From positions 143,964,001-144,028,000 of the forward strand of contig OX597814.1 of the NCBI GenBank assembly GCA_951406725.2: 64,000 bases of DNA. Direction: 5' to 3'. This DNA comes from Octopus vulgaris (lineage: Eukaryota). A model generated the notes under the pieces. That model searched no databases. It had not been told where the DNA came from and worked only from the letters and a program-made list of their open reading frames with translations. Shown here one piece after another: positions 1-44,364 of the stretch. The translations under genes were made by a program, and so were the position numbers. How positions within the stretch are numbered: the stretch's first letter is position 1; each line of letters starts with the position of its first letter.

Positions 1-990
1 CTCTTTGGTAACGTAGGTGCTTTTTGCTGGACATCCTGGAGGACGAGAAACAAAACCTGTCCAAGGACGAATAAACTCCACAAAGTTGTCGACCATCCGA
101 CTGCGGGCAGTGAAGGACTTCTGACCACTGGGAGTGAGGGACTTTTGTCAATAGGGAACTACTAAACCCCATTTGAATCTGCTGTTAAGCAGGGCGGAGT
201 TCCTACATTGTTCGCCATCTTCTTTGCTAGCGTTATCATGCAAACCTTTACGCATAGCAATGCTGGTATCTACACCCTTTACAGTACAACAGGAAAACTT
301 TTCAACATCCCTCGTTTACTGGAGTATCAATAACTTTTATAACTGTCATTCGTGATCTCCTTTAAGCTGATGATTGCGATCTTGTAACCTACCTTGCGAA
401 AGATCTGTAGCTTTTGATGGACTGCTTTTCAGCCGAGTGTGATGAATTTGGATATGCAATCGGTCTTAAGAACACTGTAGTCATGTTACAACAAGCATCA
501 GACAAACCATGTATCCCCACTCTACATTATCTAGAGTAAAATGTTAAAAGTTATAGATACCTTTGTCTATCTTGGTAGTACTCAATCTGGGTTTAATACA
601 CTTAACGAGGAGGTCAGTTATAGACTTTCACAGGTCAGTGGTACATTTGTACATTTATAAAGCATGAATCGAGAATCTAACCGCAATCAGATATCAAGGT
701 GGTAACAAAATTTGAGGTTTGCCAAGCATGTGTCTTAACAATGTTGTTGTATGGATGCGAGACTTGGACAACCTACCGTAGGCATATCCAACGTTTCAAG
801 CGATTCCACTAGCGATGCTTGCGTAATATCCCGAAGATATGATGGTGATCTCATGTACCTTACATAAGGGTTTTGCAGCAGGCAAAAATGACAAGTATTG
901 AATACACGTTTAGTAAATACCAACTTAGAAAGTCTGGCCATAAAGATTGTCTGTTTAGAGGATATCTGCATACCAAAACAGGTGAACATT
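1..990 (+). mobile_element. Decayed RTE (BovB-like) LINE: 5' UTR remnant joined to RT C-terminal half
   Basis: Broken frames give GKLFNIPRL, RDLL*ADDCDL (~352-383), VIDTFVYLGST and TMLLYGCETWT (~738-770), which are RTE-clade RT/thumb motifs. Bases 1-150 resemble the minus-strand element at 38601-39156. Confidence 0.85.
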
Positions 991-1310
991 CACTTATTTC
1001 AAATACAGTTGTAGACCTACAATTGCTCCTAGATAGGGAATATATAATTTTCTACATTATTTACATCTGGCGGATATTTGTCCTCATCTTGTTTGTTGTT
1101 AACGCAATGTTTCGGTTGATATATCCTCCAGCCTTCATATGATGTCTTGGAGAAATTTTGAACCTGGGTTCTTATTCCTAACGTATTTTTCGATGTTGTT
1201 GTTGTTATTATTATTATTATCATTATTATTATTACTATCATTATTATTATTATTATTATGGTCACTGCCTGGAATTGAACTCGGAATCTTGGGGTTAGTA
1301 GCCCGCGCTC

Positions 1311-1425
1311 TTAGAAGAAAGTTACTCATATAGTGAACGTAGCATGCTGGCACAGAAAGAATACAAGAAAAGAGATGACAACCTAGGGAGAGTGATCCAC
1401 TGAGAGTTATGTAGAGAGCTAGAAG
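1311..1425 (+). mobile_element. Dong/R4-type LINE fragment (region just after the CCHC motif)
   Basis: Translates as SERSMLAQKEYKKRDDNLGRVIH*ELCREL, matching the LAQxEYKxRHD..IHW.LC motif also seen at ~9240-9330 (minus). Confidence 0.7.
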
Positions 1426-1432
1426 ATGAACC

Positions 1433-1492
<60 letters not shown>

Positions 1493-1530
1493 TTGATAGA
1501 CAGGCAGATATATATGTATATATATATGTA

Positions 1531-1561
<31 letters not shown>

Positions 1562-1574
1562 TCTTTTTTTTTTG

Positions 1575-1860
1575 ACCGACCAGGCTATCAGATGTTGCTA
1601 CACATCGCTGGTCACAATGCGCTTCGCATTGTTTTAGCCTTCAAATGACGCCACCCCGCTGGCTAAGCGACCAGGCCAACAGAAGAAAGAGTGGGAGAAA
1701 GTTGTAGCGTAAGAGTACAGAAGGGATACCCCCCCTGTCGGATCCTCATGGAGCTTTAGGTGTTTTCGCTCAATAAACACTCACAACGCCCGGTCTGGGA
1801 ATCGAAATCGCGATCCTACGACCGCGAGTCCGCTGCCCTAACCACTGAGCCGTTGCGCCT
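1575..1860 (-). mobile_element. tRNA-derived SINE; a tail-only copy lies at 53750-53865
   Basis: Minus-strand head has A box GGCTCAGTGG and B-box-like TTCGATTCC. The body GACCGACCAG...CACATCGCTGGTCACAATGCG...GGCTAAGCGA recurs at 53760-53863. Confidence 0.75.
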
Positions 1861-1997
1861 CTACACACACGCACACACACACACACACACACATATATAT
1901 AATATATATATATATATATATAAATAATTTAATAAATAAAATATATGCATACGTACATACATATATGTACGTACATACATCTACATGTATATATACA

Positions 1998-2067
<70 letters not shown>

Positions 2068-2071
<4 letters not shown>

Positions 2072-2345
2072 TACAGGACACCACAAATGAACGTAGAACA
2101 CAACGAGAAACGAAAACATAAAAACAACTAGGAAACGGACTTTTTTTAACAACGAAAAAACAAAATACAAGACAAACAATACAAGGAATATCCCCCCTTC
2201 ATCAGCTGTCCCAGGATCGACTCAATGCGTGTTTCGAAGGTAAGGACAGAACACGACCCGTCGATCCAGTCCTTCCTACAAAAGAATTAAATAAAATTCC
2301 TTTGCAGAGGGGTAAAAACAAGGAAAGAAAAAAATGTGACAAGAA
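2068..2345 (-). mobile_element. Probable Penelope-like pLTR fragment
   Basis: Unique segment between microsatellites. Minus strand has CGAAAC...CTGATGAAG hammerhead half-motifs and a T-rich tail like the other pLTR relics. Confidence 0.4.
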
Positions 2346-2435
2346 CATGACGTAAAAGCAATACTAATAAAATACAATTACAAATAAAAATACAAATACA
2401 AAATAAAAATACAAATACAAAAATACAGTACACAT

Positions 2436-2486
<51 letters not shown>

Positions 2487-2842
2487 CACTGTTTATTCGA
2501 AATATAATGAAATGAAGTTAAAATTCTTTCTGAAAGCCGCTACGATGCAAGCTGGAAACAAAGGAATGAAAATAAAGCAAAATAAAAGCATATCCCCATA
2601 TTTAAAACAAATAAAAAACAACAATAAAACACTGTAACTGTTCGTGACCTTTATGACTTTTGGATTTGATGCCGCTAACAAGCGGAACGGAGAGCAAGAG
2701 TGAGTGAGTGAGAGAGAGAGATAAAGAAAGAGAGAGAGAGAAAAAATGTGAATGGTATTGCGTGTGCGTGGGATTCTAGTCTGGTTAAGGAAGATGTAGT
2801 TTTGATGTATTTCAAACAATACAGAAGCTACATATGTATGTG

Positions 2843-2899
<57 letters not shown>

Positions 2900-3017
2900 T
2901 CACACATACACACACAACACACACACGCACACACATATGAATAAATGTGCTCCAGCATGGTCGCAGTCAAGTGACTGAAGCAAGTAAAATAAAATACAAT
3001 AATGGTATATATGTATG

Positions 3018-3055
<38 letters not shown>

Positions 3056-3566
3056 CACTATGATCGTTATTTTTATTATGATTTTATCTTTATTTATGTA
3101 TACATATTTATTCACTCCAATAATCATTATATTCACTGCGGTACTATTTTGATCAAACAACGTACAAGAGATGATTACTTATTAACTATGTGACTTCTGT
3201 TGGCTTACAGCCGTTTCGCAACCTTTTTCATGTAATATTAATTTCAGTGTGGAAAAAATTACGTGTATATGTTAGCATTAATATGTAGGCTCAGAATTAT
3301 ACAATTGTATTTTCACAAATTAATGCAAAGAAAGCTAGCTAGATATGAACTCTTTGCGTTGTCAAAAATTTGGAATAAATAGCAGAGCTCTTCTTGTCTG
3401 ACGTTTTTAGAGTCCACCATTACACAGACTTGGATTGATGCTTTTTATCGACCCAGAAATGATGAACGGTAAAATTGGTCTCAAAGGGATTTGAACACGG
3501 ATTACGAAAAGTCGAAACAGATGTCACGCAGCATCACTATTGAATCTGCTAATATGCCACATATGT

Positions 3567-5622: not shown

Positions 5623-5696
5623 GGCTCCGTAGCTCAGTTGGTTAGAGCGCCAGTCTAGTAAACTGGAGGTCGAGTGTTCGAATCTCTCCGGAGCCT
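5623..5696 (+). tRNA. trnT-AGT: tRNA-Thr (anticodon AGT)
   Basis: Full cloverleaf GGCTCCG TA GCTC AGTTGGTTA GAGC G CCAGT CT-AGT-AA ACTGG AGGTC GAGTG TTCGAAT CTCTC CGGAGCC T, with intact A and B boxes and one T-T mismatch in the T-stem. Confidence 0.9.
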
Positions 5697-21837: not shown

Positions 21838-22240
21838 AGCAATAATAAATCTCTGAACGAGATATAAACAGTAACTGCACGACAATGTGAGGTATACTTG
21901 CCATCTCAATATGGCTAACCACTAAGGGTGGGTGTTACTGTAGCTTGTAGCCCTTGGAGAACACCGTCTCCAGCTGGCATTAGGCACACTTTCTGTGCCC
22001 TTATGGTATTTGAAAAGGGAGGTCATCCTTCCTCGTCAACCCAAGTGATACGCACGGACTGCAGTTTCTAGGTTTTGACCTGTCCTCAGCGTACGACAAT
22101 CACCGGTTGTCGATGAAGGGAGGTCCCAATATAAATTCTTATATCGTTTTTCCAGTAATTTATCGTCACTGATTTCGAAAAACTGTCTGCAAGCAATAAT
22201 AAATCTCTGAACGAGATATAAACAGTAACTGCACGACAAT
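21838..22240 (-). mobile_element. Retrozyme-/pLTR-like 354-bp monomer with 49-bp terminal direct repeat
   Basis: Identical 49-mer at 21838-21886 and 22192-22240; contains an intact hammerhead; a diverged relative lies at 44065-44315. Confidence 0.7.
22051..22095 (-). ncRNA. Minimal type I hammerhead ribozyme (intact core)
   Basis: CGTACG CTGAGGA C AGGT CAAA ACCT A GAAA CTGCAG TC CGTGCG: 6-bp stem I, CUGANGA, 4-bp stem II, GAAA, palindromic helix III, GUC cleavage triplet. Confidence 0.8.
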
Positions 22241-22305
22241 TGTACCGTATTTTACAATCCTGTAAATAATAATGATGGTATTTTTATATAAGCTTAAATC
22301 TTATG

Positions 22306-22715
22306 GCGATCACCGTGCAATGACTATGGAAAATAGTCTAATAAAAGGGCATATAAGACCCCAACAGAAAAAAAGAAGGCTTTCCTATCCGTGTGAGACG
22401 CGAACGCACATCCTTTGTTCACACGACTGTTACCTTTACACCAGTGGGTGTAAAGGTAACACACTTAGTCGCGGATAGGAAAGCCTTCTTTTTTTCTATT
22501 GAAGGCTTATACGCCCCTTTATTAGACTATTTTCCCTAGTCATTGCACGGTGATCGCTTGCTTTACAACATGCCAAAATTTAGAAATAGCAGTTAAATAC
22601 TATTCTACTACCATAAGATAGCTCCCAGACAGCAATATTCTCGCTGTCTGGGAATCTTATGGTAGTAGAATAGTATTTAACTGCTATTTCTAAATTTCGG
22701 TATGTGGTGAAGCAA
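22306..22715. repeat. Two abutting long inverted repeats (hairpins) with a tRNA-like core
   Basis: Outer arms 22306-22393 / 22470-22557; inner perfect 15-bp hairpin 22428-22461; second hairpin 22558-22633 / 22643-22715. Confidence 0.9.
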
Positions 22716-22864
22716 TTTTGCTAAGCCCTAATTATAATTATGTTTATAATTATAATAATTTTTGTATAAGTTTGCCAATAATGCTTCTTTTAACATACCG
22801 AACTACTTGGTAAGATTATTAATTATAAATTGATTAATTAATTTTACCCTTTATTATTATTGAT

Positions 22865-26950: not shown

Positions 26951-27817
26951 TAAAATAGAAAGATGAATAATCTTGTTGCAGATTAATCAAAAGTTTAACC
27001 GATACCTTGGTAGCAAAAATCACAGCAGAAGACAGCACGGTTGGAGTTACAACCATATGGTGTTGCAACCCTGCGTTGGTGCGGATAATTGAATTTTAAT
27101 ATTATTAGTGAATTGAAGAAATGGAGTTGAACGAAGATTGAACAGAAATCGTTTTATTGCATTCTACACGTGTTTCGAAAGGCACAATTTACCAAATTCC
27201 GATTGAATAAGGAGACCATATTGTGTCTTTCTCTTCAGGAAGAAATAGGAAATCCGTTGGAAAAAACAAAAACAGAACAGAGGCGGAGCAAAACAAATCG
27301 AACGAGGCTCCTAAGAGCCCATGGCCAAACTGTTTATCAATGTATGTTGAAAACTGGTGGTGGGTGCGTTGAAGGTTTTGATGGGTCAGGCAGCGGTCAT
27401 TCCGGTGCTTAGATGTTCCTTTGTGACCGAGACTAAAGTTCTGACTATTTAAAGAATATTAGGTGTATTATATGGGGCGGGACAAAATCTACTTAGAAAC
27501 ATGTGTGTGTGTGCTGTTCTATGTGTTCGTATGTGCGTTTGATCACGTGGCCGTCAGTTGGTAAACAGCCCTACCCACTGGTCACTGCTGTAAAATCCGT
27601 CGGGTGGCAGAAAGAAATTTTTTATGTGTGCGTGTGTTCGTCTAAACCTGCCTTGTCAAAGAAACCCCCGTCGTCAAGACAAACCCCCATTCGTCTCCCA
27701 GGAGTAATTCCCCTTGCAATGGTTAATCATAATTCTCTTAAAGGTTATTCAGAATTTATTTCCAAGGGCTATTTTCATATAAGTAGTGTAACCGGGTGCA
27801 GGTATTATTTATAAGCG

Positions 27818-28435
27818 TTATTTATAAGCAAGATAAGTATAACGCCGCCAGTGGGGGCATCGAAAAGCCGACTGTAAAAGTCCGTTTACCATCCGGTCTC
27901 TGGCGAACAATATATGGAAGAGTTCGGAGACACAAAGGTTGCACTTCCTTCTGCCCCTGTCAAATGGGAGGGCCACCGACAAAATTGACCATTCCAGGCT
28001 GTAGCTTGAGTTCGTATTCTTCAATCGCCATATTAGCTTGCTAAGTCCCGTGGTCTGGCATTTATTCACGTCTCTAAAAGTTGCGTAATGGTTGGAGATT
28101 CTTGAGGACAATCTTGAGGATGAGGCCCCGACATAAGAGTAGACATCTGAGTCCGTGTAAACCTTACATTGGTAGACGGCGTTTCTGATCTTGGAGTTCA
28201 CCGACGAGAACCTTATTCTATTAGGATTAGTGTCTGAAATTAGAACTGCGTTGCTGTTACTATATTTGTTGCGAGAACTGCAGCCGCTTACTACTTTATT
28301 TTCCACTACGTCACTATTAACTAACGGAATAACCCCTGATTCTACACTATCACACAGAGTGCTGTCATTGCTAGTGCCCGTGGTGCTGCCATTGCCGGAA
28401 ACGGTGCTGGAGTTGCTATTGGGACTCGTCAATAT
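27818..28435 (-). CDS. GIY-YIG endonuclease domain (C-terminus of the PLE ORF; RT absent)
   Basis: Open frame to the stop: NAVYQCKV..YSYVGASSSRLSSRISNHYATF..TGLSKLIWRLK..WSIL..KCNLCVSE..N..RCPH, the PLE (Penelope/Neptune-type) endonuclease with Cys/His motif. The 5' end is truncated by the inverted pLTR. Confidence 0.85.
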   Translation of the reverse strand: MLTSPNSNSSTVSGNGSTTGTSNDSTLCDSVESGVIPLVNSDVVENKVVSGCSSRNKYSNSNAVLISDTNPNRIRFSSVNSKIRNAVYQCKVYTDSDVYSYVGASSSRLSSRISNHYATFRDVNKCQTTGLSKLIWRLKNTNSSYSLEWSILSVALPFDRGRRKCNLCVSELFHILFARDRMVNGLLQSAFRCPHWRRYTYLAYK

Positions 28436-28586
28436 TGCCTGACCCGTCAAAACCTTCAACGCACCCACCACCAGTTTTCAACATACATTGATAAACAGTT
28501 TGGCCATGGGCTCTTAGGAGCCTCGTTCGATTTGTTTTGCTCCGCCTCTGTTCTGTTTTTGTTTGTTCCAACGGATTTCCTATTTC

Positions 28587-28666
28587 TTCCTGAAGAGAAA
28601 GACACAATATGGTCTCCTTATTCAATCGGAATTTGGTAAATTGTGCCTTTCGAAACACGTGTAGAA
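28587..28666 (+). ncRNA. Hammerhead ribozyme in the pLTR (mirror copy at 27162-27241, minus strand)
   Basis: TTC CTGAAGA GAAAGACACAAT..ATTGTGCCTTTC GAAA CACGTG TA GAA, then AATAAA at 28670. Confidence 0.8.
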
Positions 28667-29834
28667 TGCAATAAAACGATTTCTGTTCAATCTTCGTTCA
28701 ACTCCATTTCTTCAATTCACTAATAATATATATATATATATATATAAACTAGGGTGCGTTGCGTTTCGTTACATAATAAATGAAAAAGATGTATAGTAAA
28801 TGCACAAACAAAAGTAAAAAACGTATAATGAATGCACCTTTTTTTCTCTCCCCCTTTTTTTTTATACCGGTTGCGTAGTTGACCGGTCTTCTATTTGTTG
28901 CTTTTCTAATGCTTTAGGATTGCCCTCTAAGCGTTACTAAGGCTGTAATCTTTCCGTTTCATATTTATCTCGTCTGTGTCCTTCGTCCATCGTCTTGAAT
29001 TACACTCATTCACTTTTGTATGTCTACTTCTGCATCGCCTGTATTCCATGTATTTTCTGTTCTCGGTCCAATATTCTCCGCAACTTTCGCGGTCACCGCC
29101 AGCATGAGAAGCATCTCAGTCTTATTAATGGTACGAAACTGAGTAATACCATCTAGCTGATAACTGATGAAGAATAAGGGACCTTCTCGTTTTATTTTCC
29201 GTCCGTTTATGCACTCAATATACGTCTTTTACTTTTCGTTTCTACATTTACTATACATTTTTCACTTATATATATATATATCAGAGGCGACCCCGGGTCA
29301 CCAGCGCCACTCGGGCTCATCACAGGTTTCGCATAAGACACAAGCCTACTCGAAGTGTTTCACATTTTCCCGCTTTATTTTTAGCCCCAAATAGCTTATT
29401 TTTTTTATACCTAACACTGTCTTTCTCCATTTCTAAGTTAAGGGTTAAAATAAAGCAACCCTGCCAAACACAACTGATCTTCGCACAGAGACGCACAGAA
29501 TAACAGCAATCAAATAACGAGAGCGGAGTCCACAACAAACATCAGCGATCTGACTGTCACCTGTACTCTTGACAAGAGATGCCAGTTAGTCTTTTACACC
29601 TATTAGGCTCATTCGTATTAGCCAGAGTTACTGGATAAATTTTCGTTCCTTTAAGAATATTGTAGAACGCAAACTTTTCATAGATTGGAATTTAAATCTT
29701 AATCTCTATAGAAATTTATTGTTTCAAGAAAATATTAAATTTGAATTACTTTTAACTTTTACGATTCTATGATAACAACACGAGCTGTAACTTATGAGCC
29801 CGAGTCAGGCGCGTGTGAACGATGTCTCTCTCTC

Positions 29835-35803: not shown

Positions 35804-36150
35804 GGAGGAGTAGCTTGCTTACCAACTACTGCGTGGCACCTTGGGCTAGTGTCTTCTACTATAGCCTCGGGCCGACCAAAGCATTGTGAGTGGATTTGAT
35901 AGATATATAGATATATGTGTGTGTGCGTGTGTGTATGTTTGTGTATCTGTGTCCCCTCGACATTGCTTGATAACCGATGCTGGTGTGTTTATGTCCCCAT
36001 AATTTAGCGGTTCGACAAAAGATACCGATAAAATAAGTAATAAGCTTACAAAGAATAAGTCCTGGGGTCGATTTGCTCGATTAAAGGTGGTACACCAGCA
36101 TGGTCGCAGTCAAACTACTGAAACAAATAAAAGAATATATATATATATAT

Positions 36151-36734
36151 ATATATTAATAAAAAGAATTCCAACCTTGTCTGATTTTCACGTTTTATTT
36201 ACAATCTTATAATGATATATTATAAGATAATATATTATAATTGAATAAAATAAAATGAAATAGTAGAATGTTAAATATTCATTCTGATTGAACTAGTACT
36301 TTCATGCATTGAATTCTGCAATCTTCGGGTTCATGTAGTAGTGTTGACAGTCATGCTTCACAATTTTTGACTGTAGCAAGATGAGTGATTCTGTGCTATA
36401 AATACAGCTGGGTAGGCTCCAGAGTGCTAGGTTTTGCAAACTGTATTCTGACCAATCAGTGTGTAGTATCACTCAATTACTTAAGCTGATTGGTTGGTTG
36501 AGCTGATTGGTTTAGGCATCACGCTTTGTTGGACAGGTCAACACTACTACATGAACCCGAAGATTGCAGAATTCAATGCATGAAAGTACTAGTTCAATCA
36601 GAATGAATATTTAACATTCTACTATTTCATTTTATTTTATTCAATTATAATATATTATCTTATAATATATCATTATAAGATTGTAAATAAAACGTGAAAA
36701 TCAGACAAGGTTGGAATTCTTTTTATTAATATAT
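36151..36734. mobile_element. Coding-less PLE-derived element with 198-bp inverted repeats
   Basis: Arms at 36151-36348 and 36537-36734 look identical. Each carries TGAAC CCGAAGA T TGCA..TGCA T GAAA GTAC TA GTTCA. The spacer has a TATA motif and three CCAAT boxes. Confidence 0.85.
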
Positions 36735-36758
36735 TCTTCTATACACAATCACACACAC

Positions 36759-44058: not shown

Positions 44059-44064
44059 GGGTGT

Positions 44065-44315
44065 ATTAAATCTCTGAGTGAGAGGTAGAGAGTAAAATAA
44101 ATTTATCAATTAAATGTGGCGGTCCCATAAAGGACGATGTTACTGTTGTTTTTAGCCCCAGGAAGACATCTTCTCTAGTTGGCTAACGACACACTGTCTG
44201 TGTCCGATTAGTATTTGTGAAGGGAGGTCATCGCTCATGTCTCTAGCCTTACATGATACACACAAATTCGGGTTTCTGAGTAGTTACCCGTTTTCAGTGT
44301 ATGATAATAACCAGC
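44065..44315 (-). mobile_element. Diverged relative of the 21838-22240 hammerhead element
   Basis: Shares TAAATCTCTGA, TGTTACTGT..TAGCCC and GTATTTG..AAGGGAGGTCATC; the hammerhead is degenerate (TACA CTGAAAA..GAAA..TT TGTG). Confidence 0.65.
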
Positions 44316-44364
44316 TAGTGGTATATATATACACACACACACATATATATATAAATATACATAC

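Follow-up and report, generated by a model that had tools for sequence, protein, structure and literature searches.

A covarying RNA fold predicted 3′ of the hammerhead in a non-coding repeat of Octopus vulgaris

We observed that a non-coding repeat of the Octopus vulgaris genome, found in nine families, carries on the 3′ side of its type I hammerhead what is predicted to be one common RNA fold, whose pairs have been kept by compensatory changes. The two copies described first lie in a 64,000-nt stretch of genomic DNA (hereafter the window). For these, the original prediction had proposed a selected RNA module carried by a hammerhead retroelement; the covariation across families bears this out, and the motifs that it listed are present in both copies where it had placed them. 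The element class, the retrozymes, is already known. Judged from the sequences, the conserved, covarying 3′ fold is the new part, and no description of it was found in the literature covered, outside of which most subscription journals lie.

The repeat, its families and its hammerhead

Copies 1 and 2 of the window derive from a ∼354-nt non-coding repeat (Table 1). Both are decayed, and each belongs to a family of its own, with 95% and 91% identity to the consensuses of families A and B, respectively. The 41-nt tandem piece of copy 1 precedes the unit and comes from the tail of a previous unit, and the 3′ end of this copy adjoins (TA)n. In copy 2, a 16-nt deletion near 44090 has removed the small hairpin Pf together with some of the Pc 3′ arm. 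Genome searches gave 3671 first-look candidates with copy 1 and 2987 with copy 2, of which 40 were scored each, and these counts are not copy numbers. Seven further families, with 750–3446 candidates each, were reached through diverged neighbours and through 60 round-coordinate stretches of 10 kb. The unit measures 351–361 nt in eight of the nine families, whose consensuses are 46–84% identical over the unit. Family D is the youngest, its copies being 96–100% identical to the consensus, one older copy excepted. Matches to a covariance model were found in 6 of the 60 stretches (E up to 0.01), one of them being a captured fragment; a loose extrapolation from this gives insertions numbering a few tens of thousands.

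Table 1. Features of the two copies in the window (1-based positions; RNA sense is the minus strand)
Feature	Positions	Strand	Basis
Copy 1, whole insertion, family A (354-nt unit and 41-nt tandem piece)	21838..22240	-	
Conserved hairpin 5′ of the hammerhead arm	22153..22171	-	predicted
Long hammerhead-bearing helix, 5′ strand (partly decayed in copy 1)	22119..22138	-	predicted
Type I hammerhead, core CUGA(G)GA ... GAAA-C-UGCA-G-UC	22051..22095	-	sequence
Long hammerhead-bearing helix, 3′ strand (GTATTTG..AAGGGAGGTCATC block)	22005..22028	-	
Hairpin Pa, 6 bp (stem 3 of the original prediction)	21983..21999	-	
Hairpin Pb (4-bp lower stem, internal loop, 5–6-bp upper stem, conserved GAUG loop)	21949..21979	-	
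Helix Pc, 5′ arm, 7 bp	21934..21940	-	
Hairpin Pd (stem 1 of the original prediction), variable, absent in family D	21919..21931	-	
Hairpin Pe, 4 bp, 8-nt loop with invariant UU	21900..21915	-	
Small hairpin Pf, weakest (75% of cells paired)	21878..21889	-	
Helix Pc, 3′ arm	21869..21875	-	
Tail hairpin Pg; invariant UUA and the tail-end site (21838) come after it	21850..21862	-	
Copy 2, family B, 5′-truncated, between TA/CA microsatellites	44064..44327	-	
Copy 2: Pa, Pb, Pc 5′ arm, Pd and Pe	44105..44204	-	

Inspection of the list of open reading frames revealed no coding frame common to the units. An ORF with RT and GIY-YIG domains is absent from the repeat, and what lies upstream of the units is other units, microsatellite or unique DNA. 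About two units are held by 42 of 185 insertions and about three by 2 of them; two hammerheads in tandem occur, for example, at the loci L028 and L062, and the window copies have one each. With its length of ∼354 nt, its type I hammerhead and an insertion footprint of the Penelope type (see below), the element is by anatomy probably a non-LTR retrozyme. It shares with the metazoan non-LTR retrozymes (Cervera and de la Pena 2020, PMC7229834; Li et al., bioRxiv 10.64898/2026.07.22.740005) an ORF-less unit of ∼350 nt (350–390 nt in mussels), one type I hammerhead per unit, the occurrence as monomers or short tandems and copy numbers in the thousands. Mobilisation of such retrozymes by Penelope-like elements has been proposed in the same two reports, the accessible text of which describes neither a conserved 3′ fold, nor a cephalopod family, nor two copy-end sites. 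A parent element sharing the octopus unit is absent among the loci sampled.

Of eight sequencing runs compared, all of them assembled contigs, four with other organism labels cover 26–27 of the 29 bins of copy 1. Relatives outside this animal group were not found: at least 118 metagenome stretches hold the 15-base pattern that was searched, and the profile match never went beyond this pattern. Another repeat with nested inverted arms adjoins copy 1 (22245–22720) and is also covered by contigs of the sequencing runs.

The RNA sense of the repeat was assigned to the minus strand of the window because the hammerhead sits there; covariation alone leaves the strand unfixed. In copy 1 the hammerhead has an intact core, a 1-bp stem III and a palindromic loop, and the cut is predicted between 22057 and 22056. 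The adjacent hammerhead had thus been correctly recognized for this copy, whereas in copy 2 both the core and the cleavage triplet are mutated. The core and stems were found in all eight consensuses and also in copies of a ninth family, J. Core variants comprise U3-A8 in families D, F and G and U4C in family C; with the U3-A8 exchange in these three families, the hammerhead core covaries as well and appears to be under compensatory selection. The U3-A8 variant, a short stem III and a palindromic loop have been described for the type I hammerheads of metazoan Penelope-like elements (PMC4209133). The octopus motif has the same short stem III and palindromic loop, with U3-A8 in three families, but differs from those described in the accessible text of that paper by its location at the tip of a long conserved helix within a larger conserved fold. 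For this helix, 15–25 long-range pairs are predicted in each of the eight families. The block GTATTTG..AAGGGAGGTCATC, noted earlier as conserved, is the 3′ strand of this predicted helix.

The same strand (22005–22028) can alternatively pair locally with 22029–22035, and this hairpin was predicted in all eight consensus folds; a conformational switch at 22005–22035 is possible.

A predicted fold kept across families

In the sense direction, the predicted fold consists of the long helix with the hammerhead at its tip, the hairpins Pa and Pb, a multiloop of 72–80 nt that contains Pd, Pe and Pf and is closed by the 7-bp helix Pc, and finally Pg. Since the window copies are 5–9% decayed from their consensuses, a fair test of covariation is the one between families. 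All helices were scanned without guidance in an alignment of the eight consensuses made from sequence only; Pc ranked first, the upper stem of Pb second and Pa third. All 56 cells of Pc are paired and five of its seven pairs show double changes, compared with at most three doubly changed pairs in 300 column-shuffled controls; family H exchanges four of the seven. In the upper stem of Pb, four of the five pairs are doubly changed.

We also counted pairs in 24 genomic copies (three per family). Over 33 pairs and 789 cells, 92.3% were paired, compared with 86.1% after shuffling (none of 500 shuffles as high) and 31–50% when the structure was slid along the alignment, and 15 of the 33 pairs were doubly changed, a number reached in 3 of 500 shuffles. 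These shuffles ignore the relatedness of the families, and the structure had been drawn from the same families on which it was counted. Family J, which was not used in drawing the structure, folds alone to the same layout and adds new double changes in Pa and in the lower stem of Pb; it was found last, with the model, through its multiloop half. When each of the eight consensuses was folded alone as a circle, largely one layout was obtained, the minimum-energy structure of family D being different at Pa and Pb, and the sense strand folded more stably than the antisense strand in all eight. These results indicate that one predicted fold is common to the nine families. In family D, for example at the locus L067, a C-rich run (G-rich on the other strand) is seen in place of Pd.

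The structure drawn in the original prediction had three stems and lacked Pc, the best-supported helix, whose 3′ arm lay outside its coordinates. Its stem 3 corresponds to Pa and is well supported, with all six pairs formed on the sense strand in seven of eight consensuses and four of six in family E, and with two pairs doubly changed. The GA-N-A-G loop ascribed to this stem is seen in the window copies and is not kept in all families (in J, the loop is a 4-nt GCUG). Stem 1 corresponds to Pd; a hairpin exists there in seven of eight families, with sequence and register shifting, and none is formed on the sense strand of family D.

Stem 2 (21931–21936 with 21960–21965) did not survive. It forms all six pairs, G-U included, on the plus strand only in families A and B, with four of six in C, five in D, five in E, four in F, three in G and two in H. 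In the 24 genomic copies, 75% of its cells are paired, compared with 73.2% after shuffling (74 of 500 as high), and its apparent G-C to A-T exchange depends on C21964, which is present in 2 of 30 family A copies. Both of its arms are moreover taken by the better-supported helices Pc and Pb, which it would break. As evidence in its favour, its covariation score and its number of doubly changed cells were reached by 4 and 5 of 500 shuffles, respectively; by inspection, we attribute this signal to shifted or gapped rows of families E–H.

Pistol ribozymes have a pseudoknot formed from the first hairpin loop, and a pistol-like pseudoknot had been suggested for copy 1. This pairing requires TT at 21954–55, where C and A are found in 28 and 25 of 30 family A copies, respectively. 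The partner of the loop is made by bases private to 2 of these 30 copies, lies on the strand opposite to that of the hammerhead and is lost in the other families, so that we regard the likeness, which concerns one hairpin loop of copy 1, as due to chance. The module could not be assigned earlier to a known family, and the Rfam searches agree with this. With the whole window, the best 150 of 302 rows held microsatellite-driven miRNA matches and one tRNA; with copy 1 and two near-consensus units (E up to 10), there was no pistol match and nothing relevant; with eight family loci at the gathering score, nothing relevant and no tRNA. The models of twister, twister sister, hatchet, HDV-like and hairpin ribozymes gave no match, in searches that also miss the hammerhead that is present.

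Next, we compared substitutions at paired and unpaired positions within families, using 330 pieces of the repeat. The rates were alike (A>G, 0.0151 paired and 0.0150 unpaired; C>T, 0.040 and 0.041), which indicates that the fold mattered to the master RNAs and not to the host copies. As the host copies appear to decay neutrally, the fold would belong to the biology of the element and not to a host function. No scars of A-to-I editing were found in these pieces (A>G against T>C, p 0.58 and 0.30), and no A>G strand bias directly marks an RNA stage.

Copy ends and the search for an autonomous partner

We mapped 264 outward 3′ ends in the 185 insertions, loci that are the best matches to queries ending near these sites and do not form an unbiased sample; 112 ends fall at an internal site, 116 at the tail end and 36 elsewhere. 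The internal site lies 2–17 nt before the 3′ arm of Pc, inside the multiloop and in or just 5′ of Pf, and is spread over about 15 nt, shifting between families. The tail-end site lies 28–56 nt after the Pc 3′ arm and 45–60 nt downstream of the internal site; the two sites are about 170 and 220 nt from the hammerhead cut. We observed that 79 of the 185 insertions are two-ended, consisting of a partial tandem and an inverted 5′-truncated copy. Both ends are clustered in 55 of the 79, and in 52 of these 55 an internal end is matched with a tail end; about half would be expected if ends were paired at random. A (TA)3 sequence was found within 6 nt of 101 of the 228 clustered ends and of 3 of the 36 other ends, against a background of 4.6%. 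The 5′ ends, on the other hand, showed no peak at the hammerhead cut: 244 of them are spread over the unit, with 9 and 4 in the flanking bins.

By comparison with Neptune- and Naiad-type pLTR insertions (Craig et al. 2021, PMC8557442), this footprint is of the Penelope type. Partial tandems, the inverted 5′-truncated copy, the tail at one end only and microsatellite targets are shared. In contrast to the elements described in the available text of that paper, the octopus repeat has no RT or GIY-YIG ORF, and it has a canonical hammerhead, which the Naiads lack.

Penelope-type coding pieces with a Neptune-type CxxC linker number in the thousands in this genome. Among the loci sampled from these thousands of candidates (30 + 30 Penelope-type loci and 20 further 10-kb stretches), none had the domain as its own 3′ end. 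Two Penelope families with readable hammerheads differ from the repeat in both hammerheads and 3′ ends, and the sampled autonomous elements end about 70–110 nt after their hammerhead, without such a fold. At two loci considered as partners, L450 and L458, the match lies apart from the end that belongs to the coding element. The parent element could have died out or have escaped the sampling; alternatively, the unit could live purely as a parasite.

A young Neptune-type Penelope family (L395, L400 and others) has intact 781-aa ORFs, a U3-A8 hammerhead and (TA)n targets. Its tail, of about 35 nt, holds a small hairpin and then an AT-rich stretch, in loose resemblance to the retrozyme tail, and this family is a candidate source of the enzyme. 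At two other loci (L036:780-1790 and L357:700-2600), a decayed Neptune-type fragment is adjoined on its 3′ side by the unit, in sense, and the fragment's remainder does not follow. These junctions may reflect a template switch or a nested insertion with deletion; there are two cases, and chance could give them.

A 64-nt piece of the family A multiloop region was found inside another repeat, which we take to be Helitron-like (L283:3270-3415; G000:C5:120003270-120003415). The piece stops at the internal site and carries a remnant of an inverted tail. This host repeat has been amplified together with the piece (1174 candidates, the best matches being 95–98% identical), and it probably explains a peak of depth at 21896–21943 of the window.

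Possible roles of the fold

Of the three functions offered in the original prediction, which were a second ribozyme, an RT-recognition or packaging element and a scaffold for circular RNA, RT recognition fits best, because the copy ends map into the module and just behind it; no support emerged for a second ribozyme. We consider it fairly likely, by analogy, that the domain is a binding and initiation platform for a Penelope-like RT/endonuclease borrowed from another element. The analogy is with Poseidon of the lizard Anolis carolinensis (Frangieh et al. 2024, PMC11167929), the protein of which, in vitro, cuts both strands of DNA at AT-rich sites and extends them. Synthesis begins within a stem-loop on the 3′ side of the hammerhead, at two sites bounding the genomic tail; the protein requires the RNA 3′ of the hammerhead, hammerhead cleavage being dispensable. 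The platform reading is suggested because the octopus domain lies between the hammerhead and the tail, like the Poseidon region, and because Pc straddles the internal end site.

According to this model, a tandem or circular transcript would fold, and the protein would bind Pa, Pb and the multiloop. The enzyme would nick AT-rich DNA on both strands and prime cDNA at two sites. A start inside the RNA would need no free 3′ end, so that a circle or an uncut multimer could be the template, and such templating would yield partial tandems. Selection would act on the ability of the master RNAs to be copied, and not on the host copies. Internal initiation would let a circle serve as template, a step left open for metazoan retrozymes (PMC7229834).

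The likeness to Poseidon (PMC11167929) extends to the post-hammerhead region, the two sites bounding a tail, the stem-loop at the start and the AT-rich targets; that the protein needs this region and is independent of cleavage are data from Poseidon. Poseidon is autonomous, and its region overlaps its ORF and has no covarying structure reported in the accessible text, whereas the octopus repeat is ORF-less. Its tail measures 30–40 nt, compared with 45–60 nt here, and its starts are closer to the hammerhead cut. The longer tail speaks against the platform, as does the spread and shifting of the internal site. Furthermore, adjacency to copy ends is no proof of binding, since any retained 3′ part would lie there; Pf, at the internal site, is the weakest helix; and the sampled Penelope-type loci lack this domain, with readable ends that are different.

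A more detailed form of the platform can be put forward tentatively, as a compact, tertiary-folded RNA "origin". In it, the GAUG loop of Pb would kiss the loop of Pe, and the multiloop would be closed by Pc. This origin would recruit the Penelope enzyme in trans and fix two start sites on a single RNA, each serving one strand of the DNA, while Pc would play the part of a template-boundary helix. The Penelope enzyme group is sister to telomerase. If true, the copying of animal retrozyme circles into the genome would for the first time be linked to a defined RNA structure.

The field has yet to explain the choice of RNA by Penelope-like enzymes and the mobilisation of animal retrozymes. A single in vitro study has located a binding region and two start sites and, in its accessible text, gave no structure (PMC11167929). 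The nine families offer a structure with natural compensatory pairs and two end sites recorded in the genome, which can be tested with a 170-nt RNA.

Alternatively, the fold may be a general scaffold that stabilises the monomer or circle, aids ligation by a host ligase or export, or spaces the hammerhead, and the enzyme would recognise a short tail region only. The whole unit is 61–68% paired in every family, metazoan retrozymes accumulate as circles (PMC7229834), and the ends of the sampled autonomous elements would agree with such a role. We nevertheless think it rather unlikely, as a scaffold needs pairing but not a fixed order of hairpins, constant spacing and conserved loops (GAUG, UU) at about 50% identity, and as the best-kept helix, Pc, straddles the internal end site.

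It is improbable that the helices act in DNA, as single-stranded cDNA or extruded hairpins serving as endonuclease target or in second-strand priming. Most pairs are Watson-Crick and would work on either strand, and the tail of Drosophila Penelope is needed for endonuclease recognition of plasmid DNA (cited in PMC11167929). However, the domain is part of one fold with a hammerhead that appears to be under compensatory selection (U3-A8 in D, F and G), and the more stable fold is that of the sense strand in all eight consensuses.

We hold a second ribozyme, of a new kind that cleaves or ligates itself, to be a very improbable explanation of the domain. A branched fold, a possible loop–loop contact between Pb and Pe (pairable in 95.8% of cells) and 13 invariant unpaired columns speak for this reading. 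But the Pb/Pe contact is not above shuffles (38 of 500 as high), the unpaired bases that never vary are dispersed among loops and tail, and the 5′ ends form no peak inside the domain. The core motifs of hammerhead, twister and pistol, as we know them, are not common to the nine families on either strand. That no Rfam family was matched is a weak point of this argument, as Rfam misses the hammerhead too.

An internal promoter or 3′-processing signal, possibly of tRNA-like ancestry, is just as doubtful: the layout is cloverleaf-like, with a 7-bp closing stem and, in most families, three inner hairpins, and Penelope pLTRs hold promoters (PMC6765202), yet ARAGORN and Rfam find no tRNA at the element, no shared A or B box or T-loop is visible by eye, and the exchange of four closing-stem pairs in family H would not be explained by a DNA promoter. 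A tRNA or tRNA-derived SINE was rejected, as the D-loop and T-loop consensus (A and B boxes) and the 7-nt anticodon loop are absent.

In the window, ARAGORN reported only an unrelated tRNA-Thr(AGT) gene or tRNA-derived copy, at 5623–5696. Long inverted repeats were also observed at 27099–28729 (294 nt at 99%) and 36142–36743 (207 nt at 98%).
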